A DNA stretch of 64,000 bases from Candidatus Latescibacterota bacterium (GCA_965223905.1 CBDCXV010000011.1:1280001-1344000); one strand, 5' to 3'. Positions 45,746 through 63,934 are shown, numbered from the stretch's first letter. The notes: generated by a model from the letters alone, not told the origin. Translations and numbers: made by a program.

Positions 45746-48193
45746 ATGAAATACTCCGCACTGTTTTTGCTATTGGCTTTCAGCCTCGCCGCATGCAGAG
45801 GACCTCAGGGCCCGCCGGGCAAGGATGGCACATCGGGCCAGATGGGCCCGATGGGGCCTTCAGGCGAACAAGGATCCCAGGGCGATCAAGGACCTGAAGG
45901 ACCCAAAGGCGAAGGCGATCAAGGACCCCAAGGGGATCAAGGCGATCAAGGACCTCAAGGGGATCAAGGGGATCAAGGACCTCAAGGACCTCAAGGGGAT
46001 CAAGGCGATCAGGGGCCTCAAGGGGAAAAGGGCGAAGGGGAACAAGGACCGGAGGGACCCCAAGGACCCCAGGGCGATCAAGGACCTCAAGGACCCCAGG
46101 GCGATCAGGGACCCCAAGGACCTCAAGGCGATCAAGGACCTCAAGGCGAAGGCGAACAAGGACCTGAGGGGCCTCAAGGACCCGAGGGACCCCAAGGACC
46201 CCAAGGCGAAGGACCCCCAGGACCTGAAGGACCCCAAGGGCCTGAGGGTCCCCAAGGACCTGAAGGGCCTGCGGGCACCGGAGATGGCGAACCAGGGCCT
46301 CCTGGCCCCGAAGGACCTCAAGGCGAACAAGGGCCCGAGGGACCTCAAGGACCCCAAGGCGAAGGACCCCCAGGACCTGAGGGACCCCAAGGACCCCAGG
46401 GCGATCAAGGACCTCAAGGACCCCAGGGCGAAGGCGAACAAGGACCCCAGGGCGATCAGGGACCTCAAGGACCCCAGGGCGATCAAGGACCTCAAGGACC
46501 CCAGGGCGATCAGGGACCCCAAGGACCTCAAGGCGATCAAGGACCTCAAGGCGAAGGCGAACAAGGACCTGAGGGGCCTCAAGGACCCGAGGGACCCCAA
46601 GGACCCCAAGGCGAAGGACCCCCAGGACCTGAAGGACCCCAAGGGCCTGAGGGTCCCCAAGGACCTGAAGGGCCTGCGGGCACCGGAGATGGCGAACCAG
46701 GGCCTCCTGGCCCCGAAGGACCTCAAGGCGAACAAGGGCCCGAGGGACCTCAAGGACCCCAAGGCGAAGGACCCCCAGGACCTGAAGGACCCCAAGGGCC
46801 TGAGGGTCCCCAAGGACCTGAAGGGCCTGCGGGCACCGGAGATGGCGAACCAGGGCCTCCTGGCCCCGAAGGACCTCAAGGCGAACAAGGGCCCGAGGGA
46901 CCTCCAGGCGAACAAGGCGACCAAGGACCTGAAGGGCTTCCAGGCGAACAAGGCGACCAAGGACCTGAAGGGCTTCCAGGCGAACAAGGCGACCAAGGAC
47001 CTGAAGGGCCTCCAGGCGAACAAGGCGACCAAGGACCTGAAGGGCTTCCAGGCGAACAAGGCGACCAAGGACCTGAAGGGCCTCCAGGCGAACAAGGCGA
47101 CCAAGGACCTGAAGGGCTTCCAGGCGAACAAGGCGACCAAGGACCTGAAGGGCTTCCAGGCGAACAGGGACCTGAGGGACCTCCAGGGCCTGGAGGATCC
47201 GGAGACGGACCAGGGGGACAGGAACCTCCCGTCTTCGAGGCCACGGGAGACAGCGCCGCTTTGGTCTCTCTTTACTATACTGCGGGCGGGGAAGCCTGGA
47301 CGGATAAGTCCCGGTGGCTCAGCTCTGCCCCCATCAGCGAATGGTACGGTGTCACCACCAACCCCAGCGGCCGCGTCGTCCTTGGGCTGGATTTAAGGGA
47401 GAATGCTTTGTGGGGGACGATCCCACCCGAACTGGGAAACCTCACCTTCCTGGAAACTCTGTACCTCTTCGGTAATCAGTTACGGGAGGAGATTCCACCG
47501 GAACTGGCAAACCTCGAAAACCTTAAATACCTGGGTCTGTCAGGAAACGATTTGCAAGGGGAAATTCCACCGGAACTCGGCAATCTCGAAAACCTGGAAT
47601 TCTTGAATCTGGAAAACAACGAGTTGCAGGGGGAAATACCACCGGAACTGGGGAACCTCCTCAACCTGAAAACCCTGTCCCTGAGTGGCAACAGGTTGGA
47701 GGGGGAAATTCCTCCAGAACTGGAAAACCTCCAGAACCTGGAAGTTCTGGGCTTGAGCAGAAACAGGTTGGAGGGAGTGGTCCCGGATTTTTTGGCGGAC
47801 TTCCCCAACCTGGAAGACCTGTTCCTCAAGGGAAACACCGAACTGAATGGATGCTTGCCGGAGGGGGCATCGGTGCCGTACTGCTCCATTCCAACGAGCT
47901 TAAAGGCTCTGCTGAAGGAGGGTGTACACCTCACTTGGGATCCCGTGGAAGGGGCTACCCATTACAATCTTTACTGGGAGGATAGTCGGTTCCAAGATAA
48001 CTGCACAGTGAGCTCTGGTGGTTCAACCGAGGGGTTCTCCGGTTGTGAGGAAATAGCTACCGAAATCTTTGAGACAACCTACATCCACAATACCACCCGG
48101 GCGGAGTCCTTCCACCTCTACTGGGTTACTGCTTGTACCAGCGATGGGTGCTCGACCATCGATAGCAGGGAGGATCCCGGAGCCGGCATTTAG
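45746..48193 (+). CDS. Lipoprotein: long collagen-like (Gly-X-Y) stalk + LRR + Fn3-like domain
   Basis: AGGAGG RBS; lipobox LAAC; roughly 460 aa of GPQ/GPE/GDQ triplets; plant-type LRR ([12 protein letters not shown]) with N-cap; [20 protein letters not shown]. Confidence 0.9.
45800..47195 (+). repeat. Collagen-coding low-complexity repeat with higher-order duplications
   Basis: GGACC(T/C)CAA triplet units; the [13 protein letters not shown] block occurs 3 times; terminal 27-bp GEQGDQGPE(GP/GL)P-type units are repeated. Confidence 0.9.
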
Positions 48194-48208
48194 GATTGGA
48201 TTACTTGA

Positions 48209-48277
48209 AAGAGGAGTACTCATCCGACCACTGTTCAGGCGTCAGCACAAACCCCAGGCTGGATGAGTACGCCTCTT
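48209..48277. other. Intergenic 17-bp inverted repeat (hairpin)
   Basis: AAGAGGAGTACTCATCC (48209-48225) and GGATGAGTACGCCTCTT (48261-48277), 16/17 complementary. Confidence 0.6.
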
Positions 48278-48331
48278 CCCTGCCCGACGGCTTGGATCTG
48301 ACTCGCAGGAAATACTCCTTCACCCAGGAAG

Positions 48332-48703
48332 ATGGAACCCATGCTCGGACGGAGGCGAATCCCCCTTCTCGGGTTGCTGTTGGGCTGGGCCGCTTGTGGA
48401 GCCAGCGGCAAGGGAACCGGGCCGGAGCCGGTAGTTGAGCCGGAACCGGTTGTTGAATCGGAACCGGTAGTTGAATCGGAACCGGTTGTCGAATCGGAAC
48501 CGGAACCAAAATGGAAGTGGTCTTGTACCGCTACTGCCACTGGCAGAGACCGCCTCTTCGGAGGGCAAGTTTCTGGCACCATCAGTGTCTCTGAAGACAC
48601 CGAGGCAGAAGCCCGACAGGGTCTGCAGGACGCGGCCTGCTTGATATTCAAAGATTGTGGACAGCTTCAGAACATATCCTGTGATGAACGGGAGGAATCT
48701 TAG
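48332..48703 (+). CDS. Small lipoprotein with (EPVVES)n linker and Cys-containing C-domain
   Basis: Lipobox WAAC; 18-bp tandem repeats at about 48421-48507; four Cys in the C-terminal domain. Confidence 0.65.
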
Positions 48704-48762
48704 ACGTGGGCGAACCACGCACCCGTGCCGGTTTACTTATTGCATCCGGAAGGAGGCAGTCG

Positions 48763-49881
48763 ATGAACTACTTTGCGTTCATACCGTTGTTAGCTTTCGG
48801 CCTCGTCGCCTGCGAAGGACCTCAAGGGCCGATGGGGCCTCCAGGGCCCCAGGGCGAACAAGGGCCTCTAGGGCCCCAAGGCGAAGGCGAGCAAGGGCCT
48901 GAGGGACCGCAAGGGCCCCAAGGGCCTGAGGGACCCCAAGGGCCTCAAGGCGAACAAGGACCTCAAGGACCGCAAGATGAACAAGGATCTGCTGCCTCCC
49001 CTGCCATGTCAGACAGTACCGTACTGATCGCGTTCTACGATGCCGCGGGCGGACAGAGCTGGAAGGACAACACCAACTGGTTGAGTGAGGTCCCCATCAG
49101 TGAATGGTACGGCGTCACCACCAACCCAGGCGGCCGTTACGTCATCCGGCTCGATCTCCCGGAGAACGGGTTGTGGGGAACGATCCCGCCGGAACTGGGC
49201 AACCTCCCCTACCTGGAATTCCTCAACCTGCGTAGCAACGAGCTCCGGGGGGAGGTTCCGGCGGAACTGGCCAACCTTGGCAACCTGGAAACCCTGGGCC
49301 TGGAGAACAACAAGCTGCAGGGAGAAGTTCCGTCGGGATTGGGCAAACTTGGCAACCTGCTGGCGCTGGCCCTGGGGAACAACAAGCTGCAGGGGGAGAT
49401 TCCAACGGTCCTGGGAAACCTCGAAAACCTGGAATACCTGAGCCTCAACGATAACAGGCTGGAGGGAGTGGTCCCGTCCGAACTGGGAAACCTCGAAAAC
49501 CTGCAAATCCTGTTTCTCGATGGAAACAACCAGCTGAATGGATGCCTGCCCGAGGGGGCGTCGGTGCCGTACTGCACAAGTCCAGGAAACCAACGATTCG
49601 GGTGGGATGAGGAGACGATAGTCGTCAGTTGGGAACCTGTGGAAAGGGCTACCCACTACAATATCTACTGGGACGATTTCTTCACATCCTGCCATCTGGA
49701 GCAAAGCGGCAAGCCGAGCTGGTGCGAGGAACTTGCTACACAGGTCTCCGAGACGACCTACGTTCACACTGACGCACCGGAACCAGGCCTTTTCGACATC
49801 AACTACTGGGTCACCGCCTGCAACAGCGATGGGTGCTCGAGGATCGACACTGAAAACCCGGCCAGGTCCTCGGCGCAGTAG
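48763..49881 (+). CDS. Lipoprotein: short collagen + LRR + Fn3-like (paralog of 45746..48193)
   Basis: AGGAGG RBS; lipobox LVAC; same LRR N-cap and [14 protein letters not shown] motif as its paralog. Confidence 0.9.
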
Positions 49882-49946
49882 AAAAAAAACCTTGCAAGAG
49901 GGCATTCATCGGAAAACCAGCCCTCTTCATCTGAAAGGAGCAGGAA

Positions 49947-50939
49947 ATGAAATATTTCGCGCTTTCTTTGATTTTCGCTTTCGCCCTCGCCGCATGCACA
50001 GGCCCTGAGGGCCCAACGGGACCTCAAGGGCCCCAAGGAGAAAAGGGTGAACCAGGATCTCAAGGACCTCAAGGCGAAGGCGAACAAGGGCCCCAAGGGC
50101 CAGAGGGACCCCAAGGGCCTCAAGGGGAACAAGGACCTGAGGGACCCCAGGGGGAAGGGGAACAAGGACCTGAGGGACCTCAAGGACCTCAAGGCGAACG
50201 AGGGTCGACGTACAGAATACTGTACTGGGCGGACTCCGATGCGGGCAAGATTCAGCGCGCCAACCTCGACGGTTCCGAAGTTCAAACCATCGTCTCCGGA
50301 TTGGAGGATCCGGAGGGAATTGCCCTCGACGCGGGCAGTGGGAAGATATACTGGACGGAATGGGAGAGCATTAAGCGGGCCAACCTCGACGGATCCCAAA
50401 TCGAAAGCCTCGGCACCGTATGGGGAAGTGACATCGCCCTGGACGTGACCGAAGGCAAATCTTACCTGGCGAACTGGAAAGGGATAATCTACCGCACCGG
50501 CCTCGGCGGTTCCCCGGTCGAAACCGTCGTCCCCGAAGCGGGTGCGTCAGAGGCCATCGCCCTGGATCTGAGCAGAGGCAAGATGTACTGGGGGGGCTGG
50601 CGCGGGGAGGAGATCAGGTGGGCCGACCTCGACGGATCCCAACTCGAAATCATCGTCACCGGGGTGGATCGTGCACGCGACCTGGCCGTCGACGAGGGGG
50701 GGGGCAGGATATACTGGGCCTCGGATGCCGGAGTTCAACGGGCCAACCTCGACGGTTCCCAGGTCGAAACCCTCTTCTCCGAACACAGTATGGGCATTGC
50801 CCTCGACCTGGGCGGGGGCAAGATATACTGGACCGAATGGATCGAGGAGAGGATTCGCCGGGCCAACCTCGACGGGTCACAGGTCCAAACCATCGTCACC
50901 GGGTTGGAGTGGCCGCGCGATATCGCCTTGGGTCCCTGA
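49947..50939 (+). CDS. Lipoprotein: short collagen + YWTD propeller
   Basis: AAGGAG RBS; lipobox LAAC; G-X-Y repeats; [17 protein letters not shown] repeats. Confidence 0.9.
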
Positions 50940-51034
50940 AATCTGAAATGAGCGGGAACAGTCCGGAAAGGTTGCGGTTGGACCCCGGGCTGTTTCCAAA
51001 GCTTTTCGACGGCATTCCGGAACCATAGATATTC

Positions 51035-52630
51035 ATGAGCAAACAACTCTTACCCTGCGTCATTTATTTTGTAACGCCTTGGATTTTTAGTCCAGGGTTC
51101 ACCGCGGCACAGATAGATGTCGATGTCGTTGCTGAAAGCATCGTCCGTGTCAGGGCGTACGAGAATAACCAGGTTGCGGTCGAGGGAGCCGGGTTTGTCG
51201 TCAATGAAACGGGACATGTCCTGACGAATGCCCATCTCGTTGAGGAAGCGGAGCGAGTAACGGTATTGTCCCTGAAAACGGGCGCCGAGTCGGTTCCCGA
51301 GCCGGTGTTCGTCGACCGCGAAATCAACCTTGCCCTTTTGCAAGCCGATGGTTTGGACCTGCCTCCCCTCAGACTGTCGGAAAAGGCAGCAGATACAGGC
51401 CGAACCGTCCGGACGCTGCGCTTCGATGTAATGGGGGGTGTCCGGCTTTCTCAGGGAACGATAGGCGCTTACGAAACCATTTTTGACAAAAAGGCGGGCC
51501 TCGCCGTGGGGCGCCTGCTGCAACACAATGCCCTGATAACGGAAAAAGCCTTCGGTATGCCCTTGTTCAACGAATGCGGAGACGTGGTGGCAATCAACAT
51601 GCCGAACCCTCGCAGCGGACCGTGGCCGTTTCGGACAGCGAAACCGAAAGGAGCGGTTTTTGCCTTGAGCAGCAAAGACATGGTAGCTGCTCTCGACGAC
51701 CGCAAAATCGCGCATCAGGCGGTAAATACTGAATGCCTGAGTGCTCTCGAGCGGGCGGAACGGGACAAGCTGGCGACTGCGGATAGCCTGAAGCTGGCAA
51801 GGGCGCAGGCCGACTCGGCTAGAAGGGCCGCAAAAGAGGCAAAGGAGAAAGAAGAGGCGGCCCGGCGGGAGGCGGAAAAGGTGAAAGCGCGAGCGGACGC
51901 TGCGAGAAAGGCGGCGGCCGAGAGCATTCAGGCAGCCAAAGCCCAGGCGGAAAGTCTGAAGATCGCGACAGCACGTGCCGACACCGCGGTAAAAGCTGCG
52001 GCCGCTAGCCTGCTGGCGGTTCAGGCCCAAGCCGAAAGCCTGGAGACAGCGAAAGCGTCGTCCGATTCGGCGACTGATGCGGCCGCCGGCAGCAGTAAGG
52101 AAGCTGCGCAGGAGATCCCGTTGAGCTTGAAGTGGGGAATTCCAGTCGGGGGGGCGCTGGTGTTGCTCACCCTTCTCGGTTGGCTGCTTGCCTCCAACCG
52201 CAGGAAGGAACAATTACGCAGTGCCGAGTCCCGTTTGAAGGCAGCGGAAAAAAACGCTGATGAAGCACACCAGGCTGCGGCCGCCGCACCGAAACCCGCC
52301 CCTTTCAGATGCCTGTTGGAAGGCCGGGACAGCTCCGGCCGGCCATTCGCATTGACCATATCGGCATTGGCATTGAGTGATCCGGCCGGCGTAACGCTGG
52401 GAAGAAGTCCGGAAAATGCCGATTTCGTCATCGACCACGATGAGGTCTCCCGCGAACACGTTCGCCTGAGGTACACAGGCGCCACCCTCTACGCGGAGGA
52501 CTTGGACGCCCTGAACGGGACCAAGGTCAACGGCCGCCTGCTGAACCCGCATGAAACCGCGGTTCTGAGAAACGGGGATCGACTCGAGACAGGCCCGATT
52601 GTTTTCTCGGTGCGCCTGGTCCAGGAGTGA
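51035..52630 (+). CDS. Trypsin-like domain (catalytically degenerate) + coiled coil + TM + FHA
   Basis: GAGFVV..LTNAHLV is present; NLALL and ITEKAFGMPL replace the canonical DLALL and NPGNSGGPL; TM IPVGGALVLLTLLGWLL; FHA motifs LGRS..VSREH..LNGTKVN. Confidence 0.85.
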   Translation: MSKQLLPCVIYFVTPWIFSPGFTAAQIDVDVVAESIVRVRAYENNQVAVEGAGFVVNETGHVLTNAHLVEEAERVTVLSLKTGAESVPEPVFVDREINLALLQADGLDLPPLRLSEKAADTGRTVRTLRFDVMGGVRLSQGTIGAYETIFDKKAGLAVGRLLQHNALITEKAFGMPLFNECGDVVAINMPNPRSGPWPFRTAKPKGAVFALSSKDMVAALDDRKIAHQAVNTECLSALERAERDKLATADSLKLARAQADSARRAAKEAKEKEEAARREAEKVKARADAARKAAAESIQAAKAQAESLKIATARADTAVKAAAASLLAVQAQAESLETAKASSDSATDAAAGSSKEAAQEIPLSLKWGIPVGGALVLLTLLGWLLASNRRKEQLRSAESRLKAAEKNADEAHQAAAAAPKPAPFRCLLEGRDSSGRPFALTISALALSDPAGVTLGRSPENADFVIDHDEVSREHVRLRYTGATLYAEDLDALNGTKVNGRLLNPHETAVLRNGDRLETGPIVFSVRLVQE

Positions 52631-52637
52631 GCTGAAA

Positions 52638-53588
52638 ATGAAAAGACGCAGACCGGAACTCACGATTTTCAACATGTCCGCGCTCGATCTGCTCGCATCC
52701 GCCCTCGGAGCTTTCATCCTGATTACCGTAGTGCTTATCCCCCTTTTTCCGAATCTGGAAATCCTGGGCCAGGTGAGGGGGGAGTTGGCTCAGGCAAAAA
52801 CCGATTTGAAGCAGACGAAGGCAGACCTTGACCTCGCCAAGGCCGAACTGGACCGGAAAGAATCCAGATCCCGGTTGGACCAGGAAAAATCAGAGCGTGA
52901 AAGAACCGAATTGGAGCGAAAAAACGTCGAGCTGAAACAGGAAAAGACCAGGCTCGAGCAGAAAAAGGCATTGGCCCAACAAACAAAAACCGAACTTGTA
53001 GAACAGGTCCAGGCGTTGCAACAAAAGATAGACGACACGAGCGTTCTGCTCGGCATAAGAACAATTGCCAAAAGGTTCGTATTCGTCATAGATATGTCGG
53101 GGAGCATCTACCATCCTGGAGAGCACGACTACCGCCAGTTCATAACCCTGTCCATACAGGACATGCTCGCTGCCTTCAAATCCGAAATAGAGGTCTGCCT
53201 GATCGGTTTTCAGGCTCCTGAACGGGGAACCGCGTTGCATTTCTGGCCCGAAAACAAGGAATACTTCCAGGTCAGGAAGGATGCAGAAAATCAGCTGATA
53301 GAAAAGATAAACGACTGGATGGGAATGGTTGATGGCGTCACCCCCACCCGCGCCGCCTTGCTGGCGGCCATTGCCCTGCACCCCGAGGAAATCATCCTTC
53401 TGAGCGATGGTGCACCCTCGGAGGATTGGCGCACGGTCGTGCGAGCCGTAACCGCCGAAAACAGGCAGAGAATACCCATACACGCAGTAGCCGTGGGGAA
53501 TTATACAGCCGACCGGAAATTCATCGATTTTCTCGTGCATTTGACAAAGCAGAATAACGGGTACGTGGTGGGAGCAAAACCGGGCTGA
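52638..53588 (+). CDS. N-terminal TM (ExbD/MotB-like Asp) + coiled coil + vWA domain
   Basis: FNMSALDLLASALGAFILI; MIDAS residues in FVIDMSGS, GVTPT and LLSDGAP; IPIHAVAVG. Confidence 0.82.
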   Translation: MKRRRPELTIFNMSALDLLASALGAFILITVVLIPLFPNLEILGQVRGELAQAKTDLKQTKADLDLAKAELDRKESRSRLDQEKSERERTELERKNVELKQEKTRLEQKKALAQQTKTELVEQVQALQQKIDDTSVLLGIRTIAKRFVFVIDMSGSIYHPGEHDYRQFITLSIQDMLAAFKSEIEVCLIGFQAPERGTALHFWPENKEYFQVRKDAENQLIEKINDWMGMVDGVTPTRAALLAAIALHPEEIILLSDGAPSEDWRTVVRAVTAENRQRIPIHAVAVGNYTADRKFIDFLVHLTKQNNGYVVGAKPG

Positions 53589-53614
53589 AATGAACAGCCC
53601 AGAGGAGGATAGGC

Positions 53615-54415
53615 ATGGCGAAATCGAACATGGTCAAAGCGAAAATGATCAACTTGGAGCAACGCCTGATCGCCAGCGCCGTCAGTCTGACAGGGGGCAT
53701 CTTATACATAGCGGCTCTGAGCTTTGTTTTCGATCGTCCCGATTCCATTGCAGGCGATTTCCTGTTGGACCGGAACTCCAAAAACTTCTCCTACCCGTTC
53801 ACCATCCAGAACCTCATGTGGCTTTTGTTCTGGTTCGGTTGCGGTGAGCTCTGTGTGCGATTCAACCAGGCCAAATTGGAAATGCAGCAGATTTCCAAAG
53901 GTTACCTGCCGGAAGGGGATGAGGTTATGCTTCAGGCCCACGAATTGGGGCCCTTGCACCAGAAATCCATGCCCGTAGCCAGGGAGCGGACCTTTTATCT
54001 ACCGCGTCTGATCGTGCGTTGCATTCTGCAATTCCAGGGAAGCCGCTCCGTCAACCAGGCCAACTCTCTACTGAATTCCTCCCTTGAATTGTTTCAGCAC
54101 GAGCTCGATCTCAAATATTCGATGCTGCGCTATCTCGTCTGGCTCATACCGACGCTGGGTTTTGTAGGGACTGTCCTTGGCATCGCCCTGTCGTTGGACT
54201 ATGCCGCCAAAATCGTAGACCCGCATGACCCGACCTTGCTGCGCCAGATCACGGGTCGGCTTGGCGTCGCCTTCTACACCACCCTGCTTGCCCTGGTCCA
54301 GTCCATTCTTCTGGTGTTTGCGCTCCACATTGCTCAAACCCGGGAGGAGATGGCCCTTAACCAATCCGGGCAATACTGCCTCGACAACCTTATCAACCGG
54401 CTCTACGAAAAGTAA
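53615..54415 (+). CDS. MotA/TolQ/ExbB proton-channel family protein
   Basis: TM motifs LIPTLGFVGTVLGI and LGVAFYTTLLAL. Confidence 0.88.
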   Translation: MAKSNMVKAKMINLEQRLIASAVSLTGGILYIAALSFVFDRPDSIAGDFLLDRNSKNFSYPFTIQNLMWLLFWFGCGELCVRFNQAKLEMQQISKGYLPEGDEVMLQAHELGPLHQKSMPVARERTFYLPRLIVRCILQFQGSRSVNQANSLLNSSLELFQHELDLKYSMLRYLVWLIPTLGFVGTVLGIALSLDYAAKIVDPHDPTLLRQITGRLGVAFYTTLLALVQSILLVFALHIAQTREEMALNQSGQYCLDNLINRLYEK

Positions 54416-54467
54416 GTCTCCGTCGAGACCTCTGCGCCTTTGGAAACCCCCAGGAAGGGAGGGAACC

Positions 54468-55124
54468 ATGCCCGTTTTTCGCCGCCCCGATGGCAATATC
54501 ACCGAGAAAAAGACCGAGAAATCCGAACAGGATTCCCCCTCGCCCGACCAGGCCAAAAGGCCGCTGCCACCGGCATCTCAGGAAGGCGATCAAGCAGCTG
54601 GCCCCGGGCGTTTCGATGCAGCCACCAAACGGATGGAGACTGACCATCCTCCGCTCGAATCCGGAGAGGAGGAGAAAACGCGGCTGGTGGGTGGTGGACG
54701 GGCGCGGCGGCCAGGCAAAGGGGTACGCCAGGAAAGCGCCGAAGAGGGCCGCGGTATGGATGATCCGGTTGTGGGATGGTTGGTGATCGTCGATGGGCCG
54801 GGAAAAGGCAGGGCCGTGCAACTGGGGTATGGATCCAATTCCCTCGGGCGCGGCGCAACCGACCGCGTCAAACTCGATTTCGGCGACGACCAGATTTCGC
54901 GAAACGGCCATGCGGTGGTCACGTACGATCCCCGCGGACGGAAGTTTTTCGTGCAGCACGGCGGCGGCACCAACCTGACGTATCTCGGCGACCAGCCCGT
55001 TCTCGCACCGACCGAGTTGCCGGCCCAGGGCCAGATCGGCATCGGAAAAACGGTTCTCCGGTTCGTGCCCTTCTGCGGCGTCGCGTTCGACTGGCAGGAC
55101 TCGGAAGGAAACCAAGACCCTTGA
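54468..55124 (+). CDS. FHA domain protein with disordered N-terminus
   Basis: GGAGGG RBS; PVVGWLVIVDGPGKG, LGRG..DDQISRNGHA, TNLTYL; N-terminal Thr-containing motifs (DAATKR, EKTRLV). Confidence 0.85.
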   Translation: MPVFRRPDGNITEKKTEKSEQDSPSPDQAKRPLPPASQEGDQAAGPGRFDAATKRMETDHPPLESGEEEKTRLVGGGRARRPGKGVRQESAEEGRGMDDPVVGWLVIVDGPGKGRAVQLGYGSNSLGRGATDRVKLDFGDDQISRNGHAVVTYDPRGRKFFVQHGGGTNLTYLGDQPVLAPTELPAQGQIGIGKTVLRFVPFCGVAFDWQDSEGNQDP

Positions 55125-56065
55125 CCGAAGGCGGTCGCTGTGCCGCGAAGCAAATCCGCGGCAAACGGAGCTACCAGGAAGATGATTACGGCTTCGTGGA
55201 TGCACGGGCCCTTGGAAAAGACCGTAACGAACACTCCCTGTTACTGGTGGCCGACGGCATGGGCGGGCATGTCGGCGGTGCTGCTGCCAGCGGCCTTCTG
55301 AGAAGGATCTTCGTCGAGGCCTACCCGCGGGCTTCCGGGTCGATCATCGATCGCCTCCAAGGCTGTCTCCAATCGGCAAATACAGCCATCGCCGACGCCA
55401 TTGCCCAAAACCCCGAACTGGACGGCATGGGTTCCACTTTGGTCGCGGCTGTTGTCTCGAGCGAAGGCCTGAACTGGATCAGCGTGGGGGATTCCCCGTT
55501 GTGGTTGTTCCGCAAAGGCGCATTGGAACGGTTGAACGCAGACCACTCCATGGCACCGGTTCTCGCGGACCTGGTAGCTACCGGGAGGATGACCGAAGAG
55601 GAAGCCGCCCGGGATCCAAGCCGGCATTCGCTGCGGGCAGCGGTCATGGGGGATAACCTGCATCTGGTGGACGTATCGCGGCAGCCCGTTCCCGTGGAGA
55701 AAGGCGACCGGCTGTTATTGGCGAGCGACGGTTTGATGACCCTCGGCGATCGGGAGATCGCCGGTATCCTCGAGAAAACGCAGGACGCGTCATTGGAGGA
55801 CAGCGCCGCGGCCCTTATTCAGGCCGTTAAAGCCGCCGGAAATCCCCGTCAGGACAATACCACCCTCTTGTTGTACTCCCCTGCCGAGGGCCCGGAAACA
55901 GCTGCTGATGTTGCTGAAGTTGAAGCCCCAGGTATGCCCCGATTGAAACGTTGGGCCAGACTGTTGGGACGAGCCGCAGGCTGGAAACGAAAAAGGTTCC
56001 AGCCGGAAGAAGGAGACGAGAGTGTAGGGCCGTCGCCGCTACCATCCACCCCCGGTTCCGACTGA
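55121..56065 (+). CDS. PP2C (PPM) Ser/Thr phosphatase
   Basis: Motifs RSYQEDD, VADGMGGH, MGSTL, SVGDS, LASDGL and QDNTT. The TTG start overlapping the FHA stop is inferred. Confidence 0.92.
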   Translation: MTEGGRCAAKQIRGKRSYQEDDYGFVDARALGKDRNEHSLLLVADGMGGHVGGAAASGLLRRIFVEAYPRASGSIIDRLQGCLQSANTAIADAIAQNPELDGMGSTLVAAVVSSEGLNWISVGDSPLWLFRKGALERLNADHSMAPVLADLVATGRMTEEEAARDPSRHSLRAAVMGDNLHLVDVSRQPVPVEKGDRLLLASDGLMTLGDREIAGILEKTQDASLEDSAAALIQAVKAAGNPRQDNTTLLLYSPAEGPETAADVAEVEAPGMPRLKRWARLLGRAAGWKRKRFQPEEGDESVGPSPLPSTPGSD

Positions 56066-57954
56066 TGGGAGAGGAACAACAGCATCGCCTGGCGTTGCCG
56101 AAAGGGACTCGCATACGCGACTTCGAGTTTCACCGGGTTCTCGGCCACGGCGGGTTCGGGATCACCTACCTGGGATGGAATGTCACTCTGGACATCCCCG
56201 TGGCGATCAAGGAGTACTTCCCCGCGGACCTGGCTACCCGCGAACGGAACCTGTCGGTCGTTCCGCAGACGGACCAGGCCGCCCCCGATTTCCAATGGGG
56301 CCTGGAGCGCTTCCTGGACGAAGCCCGCATCCTCGCCCGCTTTCACCATCCCGGCATAGTCCGCATTCACCACTTCTTCGAAGCCCACCGCACAGCCTAT
56401 ATCGTAATGGACTACGTGGAGGGGGAAAGTCTGTCCGCGTATCTGACGCGCAAGGGAACGCTGAGCGAAAACGAGCTCCATGGCATTCTGGATTCGTTGC
56501 TGAGCGCGTTGGAAGTGGTGCATCGAGCAGACTTTCTGCATCGAGACATCAAGCCCGGCAACATCGTCCTCCGGGCAAAGGATGGCTCCCCGGTGTTGCT
56601 GGACTTTGGCGCCGCGCGTCAGGCAATGGGCGCGAAAAGCCGCTCGGTCACGTCGATAGTAACGCCGGGATATGCGCCGATCGAACAGTATTCGACCCGG
56701 GCGGCTCAAGGAGCCTGGACGGACATTTACGCGCTGGGGGGAGTGTGTTACCGGGCGCTGACCGGAGAAAGCCCTTTCGACGCAACGGACCGGATGCGGA
56801 ACGACCCGCTGATTCCGGTGGCTGAGCACTGCGCGGGCAAAGCAAGTCCAAAGTTTCTTGCGGCGATAGACACTGCCCTGGCGGTAGATGCCCCGGATCG
56901 TCCGCAGAGCATTGCGGCGTGGCGAGAGTCCCTGAGCGATGCGGGGAAAGCGCGCAGGCCCCGGAAGAAGCTTCCATACAAGCTCGTTGCAGCAGTCCTG
57001 GGTCTGGCGGCTCTCCTGATCGGGGGCGAGAGGTATATGGAGCATGCCGAACAGGTGGCATTGGAGGAGAAACGCCGGGAGCAAGCGGCCCTGGAGAAAC
57101 AGGCTCAGGAGCAAGCCGCCCTGGAGAAACAGCGCCAGGACCAGGCCGCGTTGGAGAAGCAGGAGCAGGAAAAAGCCGCCCTGGAGAAACAGCGGCGCAA
57201 ACAAGCCGAATTAAAGAAACAACCGCAGGAACAAGCGGCGCTTGAGAAACAGGCTCGGGAACAAGCCGCCCTGGAGAAACAGCGCCAGGACCGGGCGGCT
57301 TTGGAAAAGCAGCAGCGGGAAAAAGCGGCCCTGGAGAAGCAGCGGCGGGAAGAAAAGGCTGCATCGGAGAAACAGCGCCGGGACCAGGCCGCGTTGGAAA
57401 AACAGCGGCAGAAGGAAGCGTTCGTCGCAGAGGTGGGGCGCCCTCCACATCCGGGCGGAATGAACGACGGCGATAGCGACCTGCATGTTGCCGCGAGACT
57501 GAACCTGCCACTGTTGACCGTATCTCTGCTCGAGCAGGGAGCCGATGTCCTCGCCAGGAACAAGGACGGCTGGACACCGCTCCACGTTGCCGCGAAGGAA
57601 GACGCTTCTGCAACCGCCGAAGTCCTGCTCGAGCAGGGAGCCGATGTCAACGCCAGGGAAACATTGTTTGGCTGGACGCCGCTGCACCTGGCCGCGGCCA
57701 AGGAAGATGCTTCCGCAACCGCCGAGGTCCTGCTCCAACAGAAAGCCGATGTCAACGTCAAGGACAAATTCGGCTGGACACCGCTGCATTCCGCCGCTTC
57801 AAACAATGCTTACAAGACCGCGGAGGTTCTGTTGAACAGCGGGGCTGATGTCAACGCCAGGGACAATCACGGTTGGGGGCCGCTTTACTGGGCGTCGCGG
57901 AAAAAGGCATTCCAGGCGGCGGAAGTCCTGCGCCGTTACGGCGGTCGAGAATGA
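56065..57954 (+). CDS. Hanks-type Ser/Thr kinase + TM + 10-aa repeat stalk + ankyrin repeats
   Basis: Motifs LGHGGFGITY, VAIKEYF, HRDIKPGN, LLDFG and TPGYAPIEQ; TM; about 11 copies of EQAALEKQxx; GWTPLH..GADVNA repeats. TGATG coupling with PP2C. Confidence 0.93.
   Translation: MGEEQQHRLALPKGTRIRDFEFHRVLGHGGFGITYLGWNVTLDIPVAIKEYFPADLATRERNLSVVPQTDQAAPDFQWGLERFLDEARILARFHHPGIVRIHHFFEAHRTAYIVMDYVEGESLSAYLTRKGTLSENELHGILDSLLSALEVVHRADFLHRDIKPGNIVLRAKDGSPVLLDFGAARQAMGAKSRSVTSIVTPGYAPIEQYSTRAAQGAWTDIYALGGVCYRALTGESPFDATDRMRNDPLIPVAEHCAGKASPKFLAAIDTALAVDAPDRPQSIAAWRESLSDAGKARRPRKKLPYKLVAAVLGLAALLIGGERYMEHAEQVALEEKRREQAALEKQAQEQAALEKQRQDQAALEKQEQEKAALEKQRRKQAELKKQPQEQAALEKQAREQAALEKQRQDRAALEKQQREKAALEKQRREEKAASEKQRRDQAALEKQRQKEAFVAEVGRPPHPGGMNDGDSDLHVAARLNLPLLTVSLLEQGADVLARNKDGWTPLHVAAKEDASATAEVLLEQGADVNARETLFGWTPLHLAAAKEDASATAEVLLQQKADVNVKDKFGWTPLHSAASNNAYKTAEVLLNSGADVNARDNHGWGPLYWASRKKAFQAAEVLRRYGGRE
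57050..57420 (+). repeat. 30-bp tandem repeats encoding (E/D)QAALEKQxx helix
   Basis: Repeated GCCCTGGAGAAACAG cores at about 30-bp spacing. Confidence 0.85.
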
Positions 57955-58018
57955 AAATTACCCGGAACCCATTCTTCACAACCTCCCCGGATTCATCCGG
58001 CCCACAGGAGGATTCCCC

Positions 58019-61000
58019 ATGAAAATTCCGGTTCTCGCATGTATAGTGTTTTTCGCTGTTCTGCTGTTGCCGGCCTCCGGCAATGCCTCCCCCTCCCCTA
58101 TCGACTGGGCGCGTTCCTGCCGGCCGCTCGATGCCGAGAAGTTGGAGCGCGACCATACCGGCAGTCCGGCCGCCAAGTCGCTGACCGATTCGGACGCCGG
58201 CCAAACGCGCACAGTGAAGTTGATCTACTTCCTGCCCAACGACCGCTCCTTCAACTCCGACGTGGTCGACTCCATAAAAGCAAGGATTCCCCGCATTCAG
58301 ACCCTTTACCGCGACCAGATGCAGGCTCGCGGATACGGCAACAAAACCTTCCAGTATGAAACCGACGACCAGGGCGACCCGGTAGTGCATCGCGTGGACG
58401 GGCCGGACTCCGATGCCAGCTATCTCCGCTCGTACCGCAGGGTCGGCGTCGGCAACGTGCTCAACGACCTGAAACCGACATTTGATTCCAGTAGCAGCAT
58501 TCTTTTCATCGTCGTCGACCACAGCACTTACGACAATCTCGGTTGGGGAAACGTGGCGGGGTTTGGCGGGCAGTGGGGCAAAGACAGCGGCTATGCGCTT
58601 CTTCCCCCCAGCTTCACCGTCGAAACCGCGGCCCATGAATTGGGCCATGCCTTCGGCTTGCAGCACGATTTCAACAACGGCGCCAACATCATGTCGTATG
58701 GTCCGGGATGGAACCAGTTATCGGCGTGCAGCGCAGGGTTCCTGGCCGTGCATCCCTACTTCGATGCCGATGTCCCGATTGAAGAACAACAGACCTGGGA
58801 CCTTCTGGCGCCGACCATCGAGCTTGTTTCACCCCTGAGATATCCCGCCGGGTCAACAAGCCTCTCCCTTCAATTCAGGGTCACGGCTTCAGGGGACCGG
58901 GGACTACAGCAGGCCCTTTTCTTCCTCAGATCGAGAGCGCCCCACCCTGCTGCGGGGTCTCACGAGGTGAAGGGGTGCCATGACTTGCAGGGTGTGCGGG
59001 ATACCGTCGTTGTATTCCAACATGACGGGGTTATCCCGTCCGAGGGCTCCGGTAGTCTTTCCGAGTCCCCTACGCATTTCGTTTCCGTGCAGGGAGTCGA
59101 TACCGAGGGGAATGCGAACAGCGGACCCTATCGCGACTCTCATTTCGTCCTGGCGGAAGATTCGCCGCACCATCTCGCCACGCTCTTCAGGTATACGCGA
59201 GATACTTCCCCGGAGATCTATGGCGCCGAGTTCTCACCGGATGGAACGATCCTCGCCGTCAATTCGTCCGCGGGGATCCAGATATGGAACATGGCGACGC
59301 GAGCCGTGGTCGCTACTCTCAGCGGGCGCAGCTCTGCGCTGGCGTTTTCGCCCGACGGGGCCACCCTCGCTTCCGGGTCTTCCTGGACCAACGAGGCCAA
59401 TCTCAAGCTGTGGAACGTGGCCAGCCAGACTCTTGTCGCTACGCTGCCGGGGCATACGGGGGGACCTACAGGTGTCACTTCCCTGGCGTTTTCGCCCGGG
59501 GGGGATACCCTCGCTTCCGGGTCAGGGGATCAGACGATCAAGCTGTGGGACGTGGCGAACCAGACCCTTATCGCCACCCTTACCGGGCATACGAGTCATG
59601 TCTGGTCGGTGGCCTTCTCGCCCGATGGAACCCTCGCTTCCGGGTCGCGGGACGGCACGGTCAAGCTGTGGGACGTGGCATCGCAAACCAATACCGCAAC
59701 CCTGGAGGGAAATACCGGCCGGGTCCTCGACGTGGCGTTCTCCCCCGACGGGACAATCCTCGCTTCGAGCACGGACGGCCCCATGCTGCTATGGAACGTG
59801 GCGACGAGGGATACTATCGCCATCCTCCAGGGTCATGGAGAGGCGTCCTTTTCCCCGGACGGGGCGACACTTGTCACGGGTGGAGGACTGGGCCAGATCC
59901 TGCTATGGAACGTGGCGACGGCGAAGAGCATCGCAAAGCTCGGGCATCCTGACCGGCTGGGGGACACCTGGGGTTTCGGGATCAACGGGGTGTTTTCTCC
60001 CGACGGATCCCTGCTCGCTTCGGAAGGCCTGAAGGGGATCGAGCTGTGGGACGCGTCCGAATGGACGGGAGTCTCTCCGGTGACCTCCGTTCCCGCTCAC
60101 CCGGACAGTGTCGCCCTGGTTGCTCTTTACAATTCCACCAGCGGCGCCAACTGGCGGGACAAGACGAACTGGCTGGGCACCAGGCCCATCGGCGAATGGG
60201 AAGGCGTAAGAACGAACCTCGGTCGGGTATATGATCTGGAAGTCAGTTGGAACGGGTTGAACGGGCCAATTCCCTCTGAACTGGGCAACCTCACCTTCCT
60301 GTCTTCCCTGTACCTTTATGGAAATCAGTTGAGCGGAGAGATACCCTCCGAAATAGGGGACCTCTCAAACCTCAGGTATCTGGAGCTGAACCATAACCAG
60401 TTGAGTGGGCAGATCCCCTCCGAACTCGGCAACCTGTCCAAGCTGGAAACACTGTCGCTCCAGAGTAACCGGTTGAGCGGAGTGGTCCCCGCCGAGCTAA
60501 GCCAGTTGAGCGCCCTGAAGAGACTTTGGCTCTCCAGTAACCAGTTAACTGGTACCATACCGGCAAAGTTGGGAAACCTGACCAACCTGGAGGTCTTGGG
60601 GCTTTCCGGTAACCAGCTGACCGGAACGCTTCCTTCCGAACTGACCAGCCTTTCCGAGCTCGAGTGGTTGTTTCTCTCCGGCAACCAGCTGACCGGAACC
60701 ATACCGGCGGAATTGGGAACCCTGACCAACCTGACGCGCCTGTACCTCTCCGGCAACCAGCTGACCGGAACCATACCGGCGGAGTTGGGCAACCTGACCA
60801 ACCTCACGCACCTGTACCTCGCCGGCAACCAGTTGAGCGGGTGCCTCCCCGCGGGCCTGCGGGACGTGGCGAACAACGACCTGGCCCCGCTCGGTCTGTC
60901 CGACTGCGGCGAGCAGACCACGCATACCCAGGCCACGACCGATTTCAACGGCGACGGCCAGACCGATTTCGTCGACTTCTTCCTCTTTGCCGATGCCTAC

Positions 61001-61417
61001 GGCGGCACGGACGCAAAGTTTGACCTCGACGGCAGCGGCACGGTGGATTTCGTCGACTTCTTCCAGTTCGTCGATTCCTTCAGTTCGTCGGGGCAGGCCA
61101 AGCTGCTGGCGATGGCCCAGCAAATGCTCGGATTGCCTGCGGGCCCGGAACTTCACCAGAACGCCCCCAATCCCTTCAACAACGAGACCGTCATCTCCTG
61201 GTTCCTGCTGAAGCCGGGTCCGGCGCGGGTGGAGGTGTTTGCCCTTACCGGACAGCGGCTGGCGGTCCTGCACCAAGGGCGGCAGCAGGCGGGACGTCAC
61301 CGCGTTCACTGGGACGGCCGCGACGACGAGGGCCGCCCCTTGGCCAGCGGCGTCTACCTGTACCGCCTGGTGACTGGCGAGGGTATGTTGACTCGCAAGC
61401 TCACCCTGCTGCGGTGA
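58019..61417 (+). CDS. Secreted metzincin + WD40 + plant-type LRR + dockerin/EF-hand + C-terminal sorting domain (paralog of 37338..41639)
   Basis: AGGAGG RBS; HELGHAFGLQH and IMSYG; WD40 repeats; LSGNQLTGTIPAELG repeats; DFNGDG; NAPNPFN..KLTLLR. Confidence 0.9.
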   Translation: MKIPVLACIVFFAVLLLPASGNASPSPIDWARSCRPLDAEKLERDHTGSPAAKSLTDSDAGQTRTVKLIYFLPNDRSFNSDVVDSIKARIPRIQTLYRDQMQARGYGNKTFQYETDDQGDPVVHRVDGPDSDASYLRSYRRVGVGNVLNDLKPTFDSSSSILFIVVDHSTYDNLGWGNVAGFGGQWGKDSGYALLPPSFTVETAAHELGHAFGLQHDFNNGANIMSYGPGWNQLSACSAGFLAVHPYFDADVPIEEQQTWDLLAPTIELVSPLRYPAGSTSLSLQFRVTASGDRGLQQALFFLRSRAPHPAAGSHEVKGCHDLQGVRDTVVVFQHDGVIPSEGSGSLSESPTHFVSVQGVDTEGNANSGPYRDSHFVLAEDSPHHLATLFRYTRDTSPEIYGAEFSPDGTILAVNSSAGIQIWNMATRAVVATLSGRSSALAFSPDGATLASGSSWTNEANLKLWNVASQTLVATLPGHTGGPTGVTSLAFSPGGDTLASGSGDQTIKLWDVANQTLIATLTGHTSHVWSVAFSPDGTLASGSRDGTVKLWDVASQTNTATLEGNTGRVLDVAFSPDGTILASSTDGPMLLWNVATRDTIAILQGHGEASFSPDGATLVTGGGLGQILLWNVATAKSIAKLGHPDRLGDTWGFGINGVFSPDGSLLASEGLKGIELWDASEWTGVSPVTSVPAHPDSVALVALYNSTSGANWRDKTNWLGTRPIGEWEGVRTNLGRVYDLEVSWNGLNGPIPSELGNLTFLSSLYLYGNQLSGEIPSEIGDLSNLRYLELNHNQLSGQIPSELGNLSKLETLSLQSNRLSGVVPAELSQLSALKRLWLSSNQLTGTIPAKLGNLTNLEVLGLSGNQLTGTLPSELTSLSELEWLFLSGNQLTGTIPAELGTLTNLTRLYLSGNQLTGTIPAELGNLTNLTHLYLAGNQLSGCLPAGLRDVANNDLAPLGLSDCGEQTTHTQATTDFNGDGQTDFVDFFLFADAYGGTDAKFDLDGSGTVDFVDFFQFVDSFSSSGQAKLLAMAQQMLGLPAGPELHQNAPNPFNNETVISWFLLKPGPARVEVFALTGQRLAVLHQGRQQAGRHRVHWDGRDDEGRPLASGVYLYRLVTGEGMLTRKLTLLR

Positions 61418-61490
61418 TTGGACGGGTGTCTCAGATGCGACCGCTGCCCCCCGACATAGCCCTCAACCGAAAGCACAGGACGATAACCTT

Positions 61491-63934
61491 ATGAAAACCT
61501 CCGTTCTTCACTCCGTGTTTTTGGCGTTGCTCATTCTCCTGCTGTCGCCGCCCGCAGGCGACGCTTTATCCGGGTCACAATTGTCCCGCACTTCCAAACA
61601 GACAGCGCCTGAAAACCATAATGTGATGTTAAGGGTTGTACGCGTAACGCCAGAATGGATGCCCTATGCGTCCACTGGCGGCTGGACCGAGGCCGTTTCT
61701 GTGAAAGAAAGTGATGTTCTCAAATTTTACGAAGCCGCTATCTGGGAGGAGACCTCATCGGTCCACCTTTATGCATTCTCCAATAGTTACGATGCGGGAT
61801 ATGGAAACCAGCCAGGCGTCACCGTCACCGACGAGCAGAAGATCGCCCACCGGGAGCAATTCCTTATTCGCAAGTATACGGATATGCCGGCGGCGTGGAC
61901 TGAAGAAAGAAGTGTCTTTCTGAAGTCGGCATTTGTGGATATGGCATCATATCTGGTAAATCAACACCCTGATTCCGATCATCATCTGATGTACTCCGGA
62001 CACGGAGGCCCTGGCGGAAAGCTGTTTGCCGCGCAGTTATATGAGAATCACGCTAACGAGTTCCTGAAGTCGTGGACGCAGACACTGGGGAGACCATTGG
62101 GCGTGATTGACATGGGAGGACCCTGCACCAAGGGCAGTTTTTCAGACCTCGATAATTTCTCTGATTATGCGACATATTATGTCGCGTCAGACCTGCCCAA
62201 CGGCGGATATACAATGGACCATTGGACTTATGAGAAACACCAAGAAACCGATCCCGAGACACAATATCACAATCTGGTTTCAACCAACGAAAGTCTGGAG
62301 GATGTATTAAAGGGTCGTATCGACCTGAAAAGAAAGGGATATGAATACTCACGAAACAACATGATAACGAATGAAGTCGCTCAAGCGAATTATCTCTATT
62401 CGTGCGCCGCGTTTCGCACCTTCAGCCCCGACTTCAAGACATTTCTCGGCAGCGCACATACCAGTTATAGTATTTATGATGCCTGTACCAGTATATGATC
62501 GATAATGGGGCTCCATCGACTCTGATTGCGCAGTTCACCAGCGTAATCGTGCATAAAGCGGACAACAAGGATTTTTTCGCGTGGAGCGAAGTCAGGAATG
62601 GAATTTCAATGCCCCATCCGGAAGTTACCCCTCCAGTCTCCACGGTGACGCCGCTCAGCGAGCGCACGCCACAGGTGCGGGATGCGATCGTGACCGAAGC
62701 GAGGCTCGCATCGTTCTACTCTCTCGCGCTGGACAGTTGGAACATCACCTCGCTGAAAGCAGGCGATTTTGATGGACTGACGTCATTGACAACGCTCAGC
62801 CTGTCCAACAACCAGTTGGGCACGCTACCGGCGGGTATTTTTAACGGGCTGACGTCACTGACATCGCTGGACCTGTCCAGCAACCAGTTGAGCGCGCTGC
62901 CAGCAGATATATTTGACGGGCTAACGTCACTGGCAACACTCAACCTTTGGAGCAACCCCCTGAACACGTTACCGGAGGGTCTATTCGAAGGACTGACGTC
63001 ATTGACAACGCTCAACCTGGGTTACAACCATTTAAACAACCTGCCGGCGGGAATTTTCGTCGGACTTGCGGAACTGCAATCTCTCCACCTGTACGGAAAC
63101 GCGACTGACCCGTTGCCGCTTCCCGTTTCAATCGAAAAGATTGCGGACGGTCAGTTCAAGGCAGTAGCGCCTACAGGAGCCCCCTTCAATATTGTGCTCC
63201 CGCTCATCGTTACGAATGGAACAATCGGTGGCGGTGCGGCGGGCAGCGTCACGATTTCCACCGGCACCGCGGAAAGCCCGCCCTTCACGGTGGCGCGCAC
63301 CCCCGGCACGACGGCCGCTGTCACGGTTAATATCGGCACCCTGCCCGGACTGCCCACCGAGGTGAATCGATTTAACATTCCACTGCATCAGGGCTACACG
63401 CTCGTCAAATCCGGAGATTTGCCACTGGCAATCATCGCCGCCGCGGCGGCGGCAACGGATTTCAATGGTGACGGCAGGACCGATTTCGTGGACTTCTTCC
63501 TCTTTGCCGATGCCTACGGCGGCACGGACGCAAAGTTTGACCTCGACGGAAGTGGCACGGTCGATTTCGTCGACTTCTTCCAGTTCGTCGATGCCTTCGA
63601 TTCGTCAGCGCAGGCCAAGCTGCTGGCGCTGGCCCAGGAGATGTTCGGTCTGCCCACGGGCCTGGAACTTCAGCAAAACGCCCCCAATCCCTTCAACAGC
63701 GAGACCGTCATATCCTGGTTCCTGCTGGAGCCGGGCCCGGCGCGGGTGGAGGTGTTCGCCCTGACCGGGCAGCGGCAGGCGGTCCTGCACAGGGGGCCGC
63801 AACAAGCCGGCCGCCACCGCCTTCACTGGGACGGCCGCGGCCACGAGGGTCGCCCCCTGGCCAGCGGTGTATACCTCTACCGGCTGGTGACGGCAGATGC
63901 GGTGATGACACGTAAACTCACCTTGTTACGATAA
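61491..63934 (+). pseudogene. Clostripain/caspase-fold-like peptidase domain + LRR + dockerin/EF-hand + sorting domain, split by a 1-nt frameshift at about 62481
   Basis: ORF1 (61491-62498) has the signal peptide, HHLMYSGHGG and IDMGGPC. ORF2 (62495-63934) lacks a signal peptide but carries the CTD. Inserting one base (TAT GAT G[A]C CTG TAC CAG TAT ATG) gives YDDLYQYMID. Confidence 0.65.

Follow-up and report, generated by a model that had tools for sequence, protein, structure and literature searches.

A putative TolQ/MotA-like ion motor with a vWA-bearing partner is encoded together with a proposed phosphothreonine circuit in Latescibacterota

The 64,000-nucleotide stretch of Candidatus Latescibacterota DNA analysed here (GCA_965223905.1 CBDCXV010000011.1:1280001-1344000; hereafter, the window) carries at 51035-57954 (+) six packed genes, g1 to g6, all called as open reading frames (ORFs) on one strand. 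The first, g1 (51035..52630), encodes a putative pseudo-protease with the architecture Trypsin_2–stalk–transmembrane helix–FHA; g2 (52638..53588) encodes a protein, termed TPH-vWA, in which an Asp17-bearing transmembrane, or transpore, helix is followed by a long helix and a vWA domain; and g3 (53615..54415) encodes a channel subunit of the MotA/TolQ/ExbB family. These are followed by g4 (54468..55124), for a cytoplasmic FHA adaptor, g5 (55121..56065), for a PP2C phosphatase, and g6 (56065..57954), for a Hanks-type Ser/Thr kinase joined through a transmembrane helix and a repeat stalk to ankyrin repeats. The intergenic gaps measure 7 nt (g1/g2), 26 nt (g2/g3) and 52 nt (g3/g4), while g4 and g5 overlap by 4 nt and g5 and g6 by 1 nt, and this spacing, together with the overlaps, fits a single translationally coupled operon. 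A consensus promoter scan of 50700-58300 returned one promoter-like site, compared with a mean of 1.8 in shuffled sequences; it lies downstream of the operon, within a neighbouring gene. The only terminator-like site on the + strand of the same interval is weak and lies inside g5. The window belongs to contig C11 of a 7.9-Mb genome assembled in 11 contigs and 93.6% complete, in which the cassette is present in a single copy.

The g2 protein opens with a basic N-terminus (MKRRR), followed by the transpore helix (aa 10-36) that contains Asp17, the Asp of the motif SALDLLAS and the candidate proton-accepting residue (codon at 52686..52688, +). In an AlphaFold2 (AF2) model with a predicted local distance difference test score (pLDDT) of 88.5, the transmembrane helix occupies aa 13-36, an unbroken helix runs from aa 42 to 133, and aa 135-316 fold into an alpha/beta domain. 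The Pfam VWA match to this protein (1.5e-4, 22.5 bits) falls slightly short of the curated cut-off of 23.8 bits, but the assignment is settled by the modelled fold and by Foldseek matches of the alpha/beta domain to solved vWA domains, with ITIH1 vWA at 5.3e-9 and 246 PDB matches at E<=1e-3 altogether. The metal ion-dependent adhesion site (MIDAS) is complete (DMSGS...T...D). Asp17 is kept in 120/120 close homologues, and in an alignment of 32 g2 sequences reaching down to 22% identity it is invariant together with S14, A20, G24, F26 and P35 of the transmembrane segment; the MIDAS Asp residues are likewise invariant and the stalk is free to vary, so that the Asp-bearing transmembrane segment is the best-conserved part of the protein. 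The distance from the transmembrane Asp to the vWA domain in close homologues ranges from 78 to 158 residues in a series spaced by 7, with 70/118 lengths falling in one class modulo 7, a count uncorrected for the kinship of the sequences; such a series is as expected for heptad-wise changes in the length of a coiled coil.

The neighbouring g3 product, of 266 aa, matches Pfam MotA_ExbB (PF01618) at 6.6e-10, with 39.3 bits against a cut-off of 22.9. Predicted transmembrane helices span aa 18-36, 64-83, 163-192 and 207-236; the additional N-terminal helix relative to TolQ gives a predicted MotA-like topology with four transmembrane helices and the N-terminus inside. Thr186 and Thr222/Thr223 are invariant among 27 sequences, T186 aligning with the GTV Thr and T223 with the IAT Thr of Acinetobacter baumannii TolQ, and the cytoplasmic C-terminus carries the conserved stretch REExALNxxGQYCLDNLINRLY. 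With the AF2 model of g3 (pLDDT 82) as query, TolQ, ExbB, MotA or PomA chains make up 23 of the 24 Foldseek PDB matches listed; the sole listed match outside the family ranks 38th and is a designed helical bundle. Proteins of this kind are usually found beside an ExbD-type partner in the same genome, where ExbD genes adjoin six of the seven strong matches among nine MotA_ExbB matches. In the operon itself, no ExbD, tolR or motB gene occurs among the six genes, and the nearest ExbD match on the contig lies ~430 kb away. A further, weak MotA_ExbB match in the window's genome (27.9 bits), at G000:C11:111636-111857, is likewise without a nearby ExbD match.

The remaining four genes encode the candidate parts of a putative phosphothreonine (pThr) circuit. 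The product of g1 matches Trypsin_2 (1.4e-16, aa 51-187) and FHA (9.4e-16, aa 453-518) and has in addition a weak signal-like N-terminus, an Ala/Lys/Glu-rich helical stalk at ~aa 230-355, with a weak TolA-like match (7.4e-5), and a transmembrane helix at aa 363-386. Compared with HTRA1, the catalytic His is kept (TNAHL), the Asp is replaced by Asn and the Ser by Phe, and this H/N/F pattern recurs in all aligned g1 orthologues, from which g1 is predicted to be a conserved, HtrA-like pseudo-protease. In g4, an FHA domain (Pfam 6.9e-6, aa 125-193) follows a variable and probably disordered N-terminal half, in which Thr16 and Thr71 are nevertheless invariant in 24/24 sequences; a GGAGG-like site precedes the ATG. 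Thr71 lies within EEKTRLV, with a hydrophobic residue at +3, a position at which many FHA domains favour such a residue, and the two threonines are the best candidate sites for the kinase and FHA domains. The g5 protein matches SpoIIE/PP2C_2 (5.6e-11 and 1.1e-9) and Stp1_PP2C (1.1e-40); its metal-binding motifs ED, DGMGG, SDG and DNTT appear intact by eye, and its TTG start, overlapping the stop of g4, is our own assignment. In g6, a kinase domain (Pkinase 3.3e-38, aa 20-244) with VAIK, HRD and DFG intact by eye is connected through a transmembrane helix (aa 303-325) to ankyrin repeats (Ank 2.6e-32, aa 473-606). The predicted periplasmic stalk between them repeats a 10-residue unit, ~RREQAALEKQ, for which the DNA has 11.1 copies of a 30-nt sequence in tandem (57073..57407, +; 70% matches); since tandem arrays change length easily, the length of this stalk may vary between strains.

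By hydropathy and the positive-inside rule, the FHA domains, PP2C and kinase should face the cytoplasm, whereas the trypsin-like domain, the vWA domain and the ankyrin repeats should lie beyond the membrane; we infer the sidedness of all six proteins from their sequences in this way. Much of what the initial annotation had read from the DNA is borne out by these analyses. The same-strand six-gene operon with its listed domains is recovered by ORFs, Pfam and AF2/Foldseek; the pseudo-trypsin is recognizable by its H/N/F pattern, both against HTRA1 and in the aligned orthologues; the transmembrane Asp, described there as of the essential type, is conserved in every close homologue and down to 22% identity; and the vWA domain has both its MIDAS residues and a matching fold. 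The three periplasmic heads proposed there agree with the predicted topology, and the sensing of the envelope or of contact that was conjectured for them is one possible function.

Related cassettes are found well beyond the window. A scan of a genome collection returned 24 loci, 22 from genomes titled Latescibacterota or Latescibacteria and one each from genomes titled Gemmatimonadota and Acidimicrobiaceae. By profile annotation, these loci encode an ExbB-like protein in 23 cases, FHA proteins and a Ser/Thr kinase (STK) in 24, PP2C in 22 and a trypsin-like protein in 22, and every one of the 24, like the window, has a single TPH-vWA gene; a tandem TPH-vWA pair occurs elsewhere in two genomes of the phylum. 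The contigs titled Acidimicrobiaceae and Gemmatimonadota (L015 and L023), both from metagenome-assembled genomes (MAGs), fall within the clade of Latescibacterota when the ExbB-like proteins are placed on a tree, which suggests that the contigs were mis-binned or mislabelled or that the cassette was transferred recently. Within the phylum, 34 of 168 sampled genomes have a g2 relative (E<=1e-10), these relatives being limited to 3 of 14 families (22/75, 9/31 and 2/22 genomes) and patchy within genera (17/31 in one of them); such a distribution marks the cassette as accessory rather than core. A second genome of the window's genus has two g2 copies with equal scores, both 90% identical to that of the window (G001:C3:843051-843998 and G001:C3:2424561-2425508), which are due either to duplication of the region or to an artefact of the assembly.

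Most relatives have two genes more than the window's operon: one that lies between those for vWA and channel and encodes an FHA protein of 122 aa, not an ExbD, and one for a catalytically intact (H/D/S) copy of the trypsin-like–transmembrane–FHA protein. Both are seen in loci L019-L037 (for example, L019:7700-8990 and L019:9890-10258) and both are absent from the window's clade, which has lost the intact H/D/S copy; with these two genes missing, the window's cassette is a reduced version. Several additional kinase paralogues are present in many relatives. Five loci (L020, L022, L026, L035 and L036) have arrays of kinase genes, up to ~7, beside the cassette, their heads being ankyrin, FGE-type or none recognised, an arrangement that suggests either that one motor receives many inputs or that receptor heads turn over rapidly.

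A profile search with g2 against 1.84 billion cluster representatives identified 1680 of them, at 50% identity, with E<=1e-3; for 425, the match reached E<=1e-10. The N-terminal motif ...FSxSALDLFASAxGAF... is present in 140 of the best 150; nine of the ten without it are N-terminally truncated or have no N-terminal part, and the tenth is an unrelated 688-aa protein. DxSxS is additionally present in 91 of the 140 motif-bearing representatives. Close relatives of one paired type are proteins from Gammaproteobacteria/Xanthomonadales MAGs. A metagenome scan found 381 g2 relatives, and the counts given here refer to the 80 loci kept and, for full context, to the 12 of them that have 4 kb or more of sequence on each side. 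The usual order is TPH-vWA, TPH-vWA, small FHA protein, ExbB-like protein, a ~500-aa X–transmembrane–FHA protein that is recognizably trypsin-like in several loci, a kinase–transmembrane–FGE-sulfatase domain protein and, in some, PP2C. The tandem vWA pair is present in 66/80 loci, and the 12 full-context loci have ExbB-like in 12, FHA in 7, STK in 6 and an FGE-type domain in 11. The kinase head thus differs between the ankyrin repeats of the window and the FGE-type domain of the metagenome relatives. In L039, L064, L109, L113 and L115, the parts are reordered or reoriented, opposite strands included, and these permuted orders argue for functional linkage rather than inherited gene order. When 59 ExbB-like proteins were placed on a quick tree rooted at its midpoint, FHA and STK neighbours appeared in both of the branches that part at the deepest supported split. 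One gammaproteobacterial TPH-vWA cluster has a gene for a 1032-aa CHAT (caspase-like) protein immediately upstream, at L081:3769-6867 (-). The initial annotation had expected the six genes to co-occur in other genomes, and the cassette is indeed found in the 24 genome loci, with permuted relatives in metagenomes.

Collectively, the domain content, the conservation, the synteny maintained across permutations, the folds predicted for the proteins and the missing ExbD partner show that this system is real and conserved. The operon is probably the Latescibacterota form of a widespread cassette in which the TolQ/MotA-like g3 is paired with g2, rather than with ExbD, TolR or MotB, and is coupled to a pThr circuit. 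The proposal in the initial annotation that the vWA protein is the stator partner accordingly holds as far as sequence, fold and synteny show. In the motor so envisaged, five g3 subunits would surround two g2 helices, and proton flow by way of Asp17 and Thr186/Thr222-223 would turn or shift g2, whose motion would pass along the ~92-residue stalk helix to a vWA head that may grip an envelope ligand. On the signalling side, g6 would sense a periplasmic cue through its ankyrin head and phosphorylate Thr sites, for which g4 Thr16 and Thr71 are the best candidates; the FHA domains of g4 and g1 would read the pThr marks at the cytoplasmic face, g5 would reset them, and the circuit as a whole may switch, assemble or position the motor. 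A more specific version, to which we give some credence while thinking it rather doubtful, is a 5:2-type ion motor switched by Hanks-type phosphorylation, in which kinases with interchangeable periplasmic heads would serve as receptors, FHA proteins, one of them on a pseudo-protease, would clamp or release the cytoplasmic face, and the vWA shaft would do work on an envelope target.

Several observations weigh against the pairing of g3 with g2 and its coupling to the pThr circuit. On the side of the channel, the similarity is modest: the best Foldseek E value of g3 is 3.4e-3, with none at or below 1e-3 among the matches listed, its TM-scores are 0.39-0.66 when normalized by target length and 0.36-0.56 by query, and its profile match to TolQ reaches only E 0.0046. 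As regards g2, Pfam gave no match to ExbD, TolR or MotB at E<=0.01, its ZorB1 profile match (PADLOC) is weak, at 6.5e-4, and hhalign of its N-terminus against the genome's 13 ExbD paralogues gave a probability of 0.5% (E 0.11); the sole local hhalign match, itself not significant, sets Asp17 in register with the ExbD Asp. For the putative binding of g3 to g2, the evidence consists of synteny and conservation. No phospho-acceptor or conserved cytoplasmic Thr was found on g2 or g3. The window has a single TPH-vWA gene, whereas the published family, as described in the main text of PMC12204202, is mostly paired. Finally, in the 10 loci of a well-supported marine subclade, the vWA pair and the channel are accompanied by an FGE protein but not by FHA or kinase, which means that the motor does not require the phospho-circuit. 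In that subclade (L048-L058, L100), a 528-aa protein carries the FGE-sulfatase domain, and the FGE-type head seems to work there without a kinase domain.

The operon stands among genes for secreted repeat proteins. The flanks (45749-50939 and 58019-63934) encode lipoprotein-like proteins in which collagen triple-helix repeats are joined either to leucine-rich repeats (LRRs) or to a propeller of the LDL-receptor class B type, along with an LRR protein and a WD40+LRR protein of 1132 aa. The LRR protein has a C-terminal FlgD_ig-like match, and the end of the WD40+LRR protein looks similar by eye. Synteny of the immediate neighbours of the operon extends to its nearest relatives (L014, L016 and L017). 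The initial annotation had placed the operon inside a host-interaction protein array; the repeat-protein flanks are present, and the role towards a host is one that can be supposed from them.

Other functions have to be weighed against the phospho-coupled motor. One is a Zorya-like part in conflict or defence, in which motor and periplasmic heads would detect the breach of the envelope by a phage or other invader and the kinase and FHA proteins would trigger a response, possibly depolarisation through an opened channel. The weak ZorA2 (5.5e-6) and ZorB1 profile matches would fit this, as would the patchy distribution across 34/168 genomes of the phylum and 17/31 of one genus, the arrays of kinase paralogues with differing periplasmic heads beside the cassette in relatives and the CHAT-domain protein adjoining the gammaproteobacterial cluster. 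However, the operon encodes no nuclease or other recognisable effector, g3 is without the long ZorA-type tail, the neighbours are secreted repeat proteins rather than defence genes, and the PADLOC matches are weak, those to mad6 and PD-T4-6 being generic kinase-domain matches, so that we regard a defence function as unlikely.

Adhesion or surface movement, which we hold to be improbable to a similar degree, would have the motor drag or expose the adhesin-like vWA head, as in the Agl-Glt machinery of Myxococcus with CglB, in contact with host matrix or cells. The complete MIDAS of g2 is in keeping with such a head, and the operon is set amid collagen-repeat, LRR and propeller proteins, a placement kept in its nearest relatives, although in other lineages the cassette has quite different neighbours. 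The main text of PMC12204202 raises a gliding-type role for SHLS-type vWA transducers beside tolQR-like genes and names none for TPH-vWA. The helix of ~92 residues, however, tethers the vWA domain to the inner membrane and reaches the periplasm, not the cell surface by itself, and the operon has no Glt-like outer-membrane parts.

Very unlikely, to our mind, is a purely signalling assembly, in which vWA, PP2C, kinase and FHA would form a complex like TerY-P or ArnA-ArnB and the ExbB-like gene would be a passenger or a simple channel. The combination of vWA, PP2C and kinase, with or without FHA, is indeed a recurrent set, known as far as the published accounts go from DRA0331-0334 and ArnA/ArnB, but no other neighbour of TPH-vWA is as constant as the ExbB-like gene (23/24 genome loci and 12/12 full-context metagenome loci), which persists in the subclade without kinase and FHA, the buried Asp and transmembrane motif are the best-conserved part of g2, and the vWA domain is predicted to lie across the membrane from FHA, PP2C and kinase. 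An accessory module of the machinery for type VI secretion (T6SS) was rejected, a match to PpkA/PppA/Fha accessory genes being one that the initial annotation had said would refute its reading: no match to the sheath protein VipB/TssC occurs in the 93.6%-complete genome, and no T6SS domain was found in the six operon and six flanking proteins scanned.

MotAB, ExbBD, TolQR, GldLM and ZorAB are versions of one small rotary engine that has been reused for swimming, import, envelope upkeep, gliding or secretion, and phage defence. The TPH-vWA motors, with 1680 representatives, would be a further and very widespread branch of this engine, much of it inherited together with kinase, phosphatase and FHA readers; from this joint inheritance, the gating of a proton motor by Ser/Thr signalling becomes a possibility. 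If this is true, then a phospho-switched motor would represent a new regulatory logic for this class of motors and, at the same time, a new output of bacterial Ser/Thr signalling, for which Asp17, Thr16/Thr71 of g4 and the kinase head offer concrete handles. In a sponge-type symbiont lineage rich in eukaryote-like repeat proteins, the system may also bear on how the cells sense or grip their surroundings.

Comparison with known systems places the operon at a meeting point of motor and signalling modules. The threonine-phosphorylation pathway of the T6SS includes PpkA, which carries a periplasmic vWA domain, and like PpkA, PppA and Fha1 the operon combines a Hanks kinase that is anchored in the membrane and has its head in the periplasm with PP2C as the eraser and FHA as the reader, a set that would control an envelope machine here too; in contrast, in the operon the vWA domain is on the motor subunit and not on the kinase. 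The TerY-P triad consists of adjacent genes for vWA, PP2C and Ser/Thr kinase, and vWA proteins of the TerY-P, DRA0331-0334 and ArnA-ArnB type act in the cytoplasm with FHA partners. The published accounts of TerY-P, of Deinococcus DRA0331-0334 and of archaeal ArnA/ArnB describe, as far as they go, a comparable set of signalling domains encoded together. The vWA domain of g2 instead has a predicted location in the periplasm and continues from a transpore helix, with a channel gene alongside, so that the likeness to TerY-P drawn in the initial annotation stands for domain composition and not for the placement of the vWA domain.

With the 5:2 motors MotAB, ExbBD and TolQR, the operon shares the family and fold of g3 and a partner with a single N-in transmembrane helix and a buried Asp, but g2 continues into a long helix and a vWA domain rather than into a peptidoglycan-binding or TonB/TolA-coupling part. 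Like ZorAB of Zorya, g3 and g2 would form a MotAB-like unit outside flagella, although the profile matches are weak. Unlike Zorya, g3 has 266 aa and no long ZorA tail and a pThr circuit is present; PADLOC found no ZorC, ZorD or ZorE among the six proteins and no strong match of the operon proteins to known defence systems.

The closest precedent is a computational description of putative motors composed of TPH-vWA and TolQ-like proteins (Mol Biol Evol 2025, msaf138; PMC12204202). According to its main text, these TPH-vWA proteins, predominantly heterologous pairs and mainly from Proteobacteria and Verrucomicrobia, co-occur tightly with tolQ homologues and without tolR or exbD, and AlphaFold3 models set the Asp in a ring of Thr residues; the function is left unassigned there. 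Kinase and phosphatase are absent from that main text, which has FHA only inside the word ‘FhaC’, and a literature search, conducted without most subscription journals, found no paper linking a TPH-vWA motor to FHA, kinase or PP2C. The motor core had therefore already been predicted in 2025 and is not unrecognised, as the initial annotation had supposed of the whole, whereas the link to signalling is, as far as searched, apparently not in print. Like the motors of that description, the operon has a single-transmembrane, Asp-bearing vWA protein, a tolQ-like gene 26 nt away and neither tolR nor exbD, and the channel Thr positions are conserved in g3. Unlike them, as far as its main text goes, the motor genes of this Latescibacterota member are accompanied by two FHA domains, a PP2C phosphatase, a kinase and a putative pseudo-protease.

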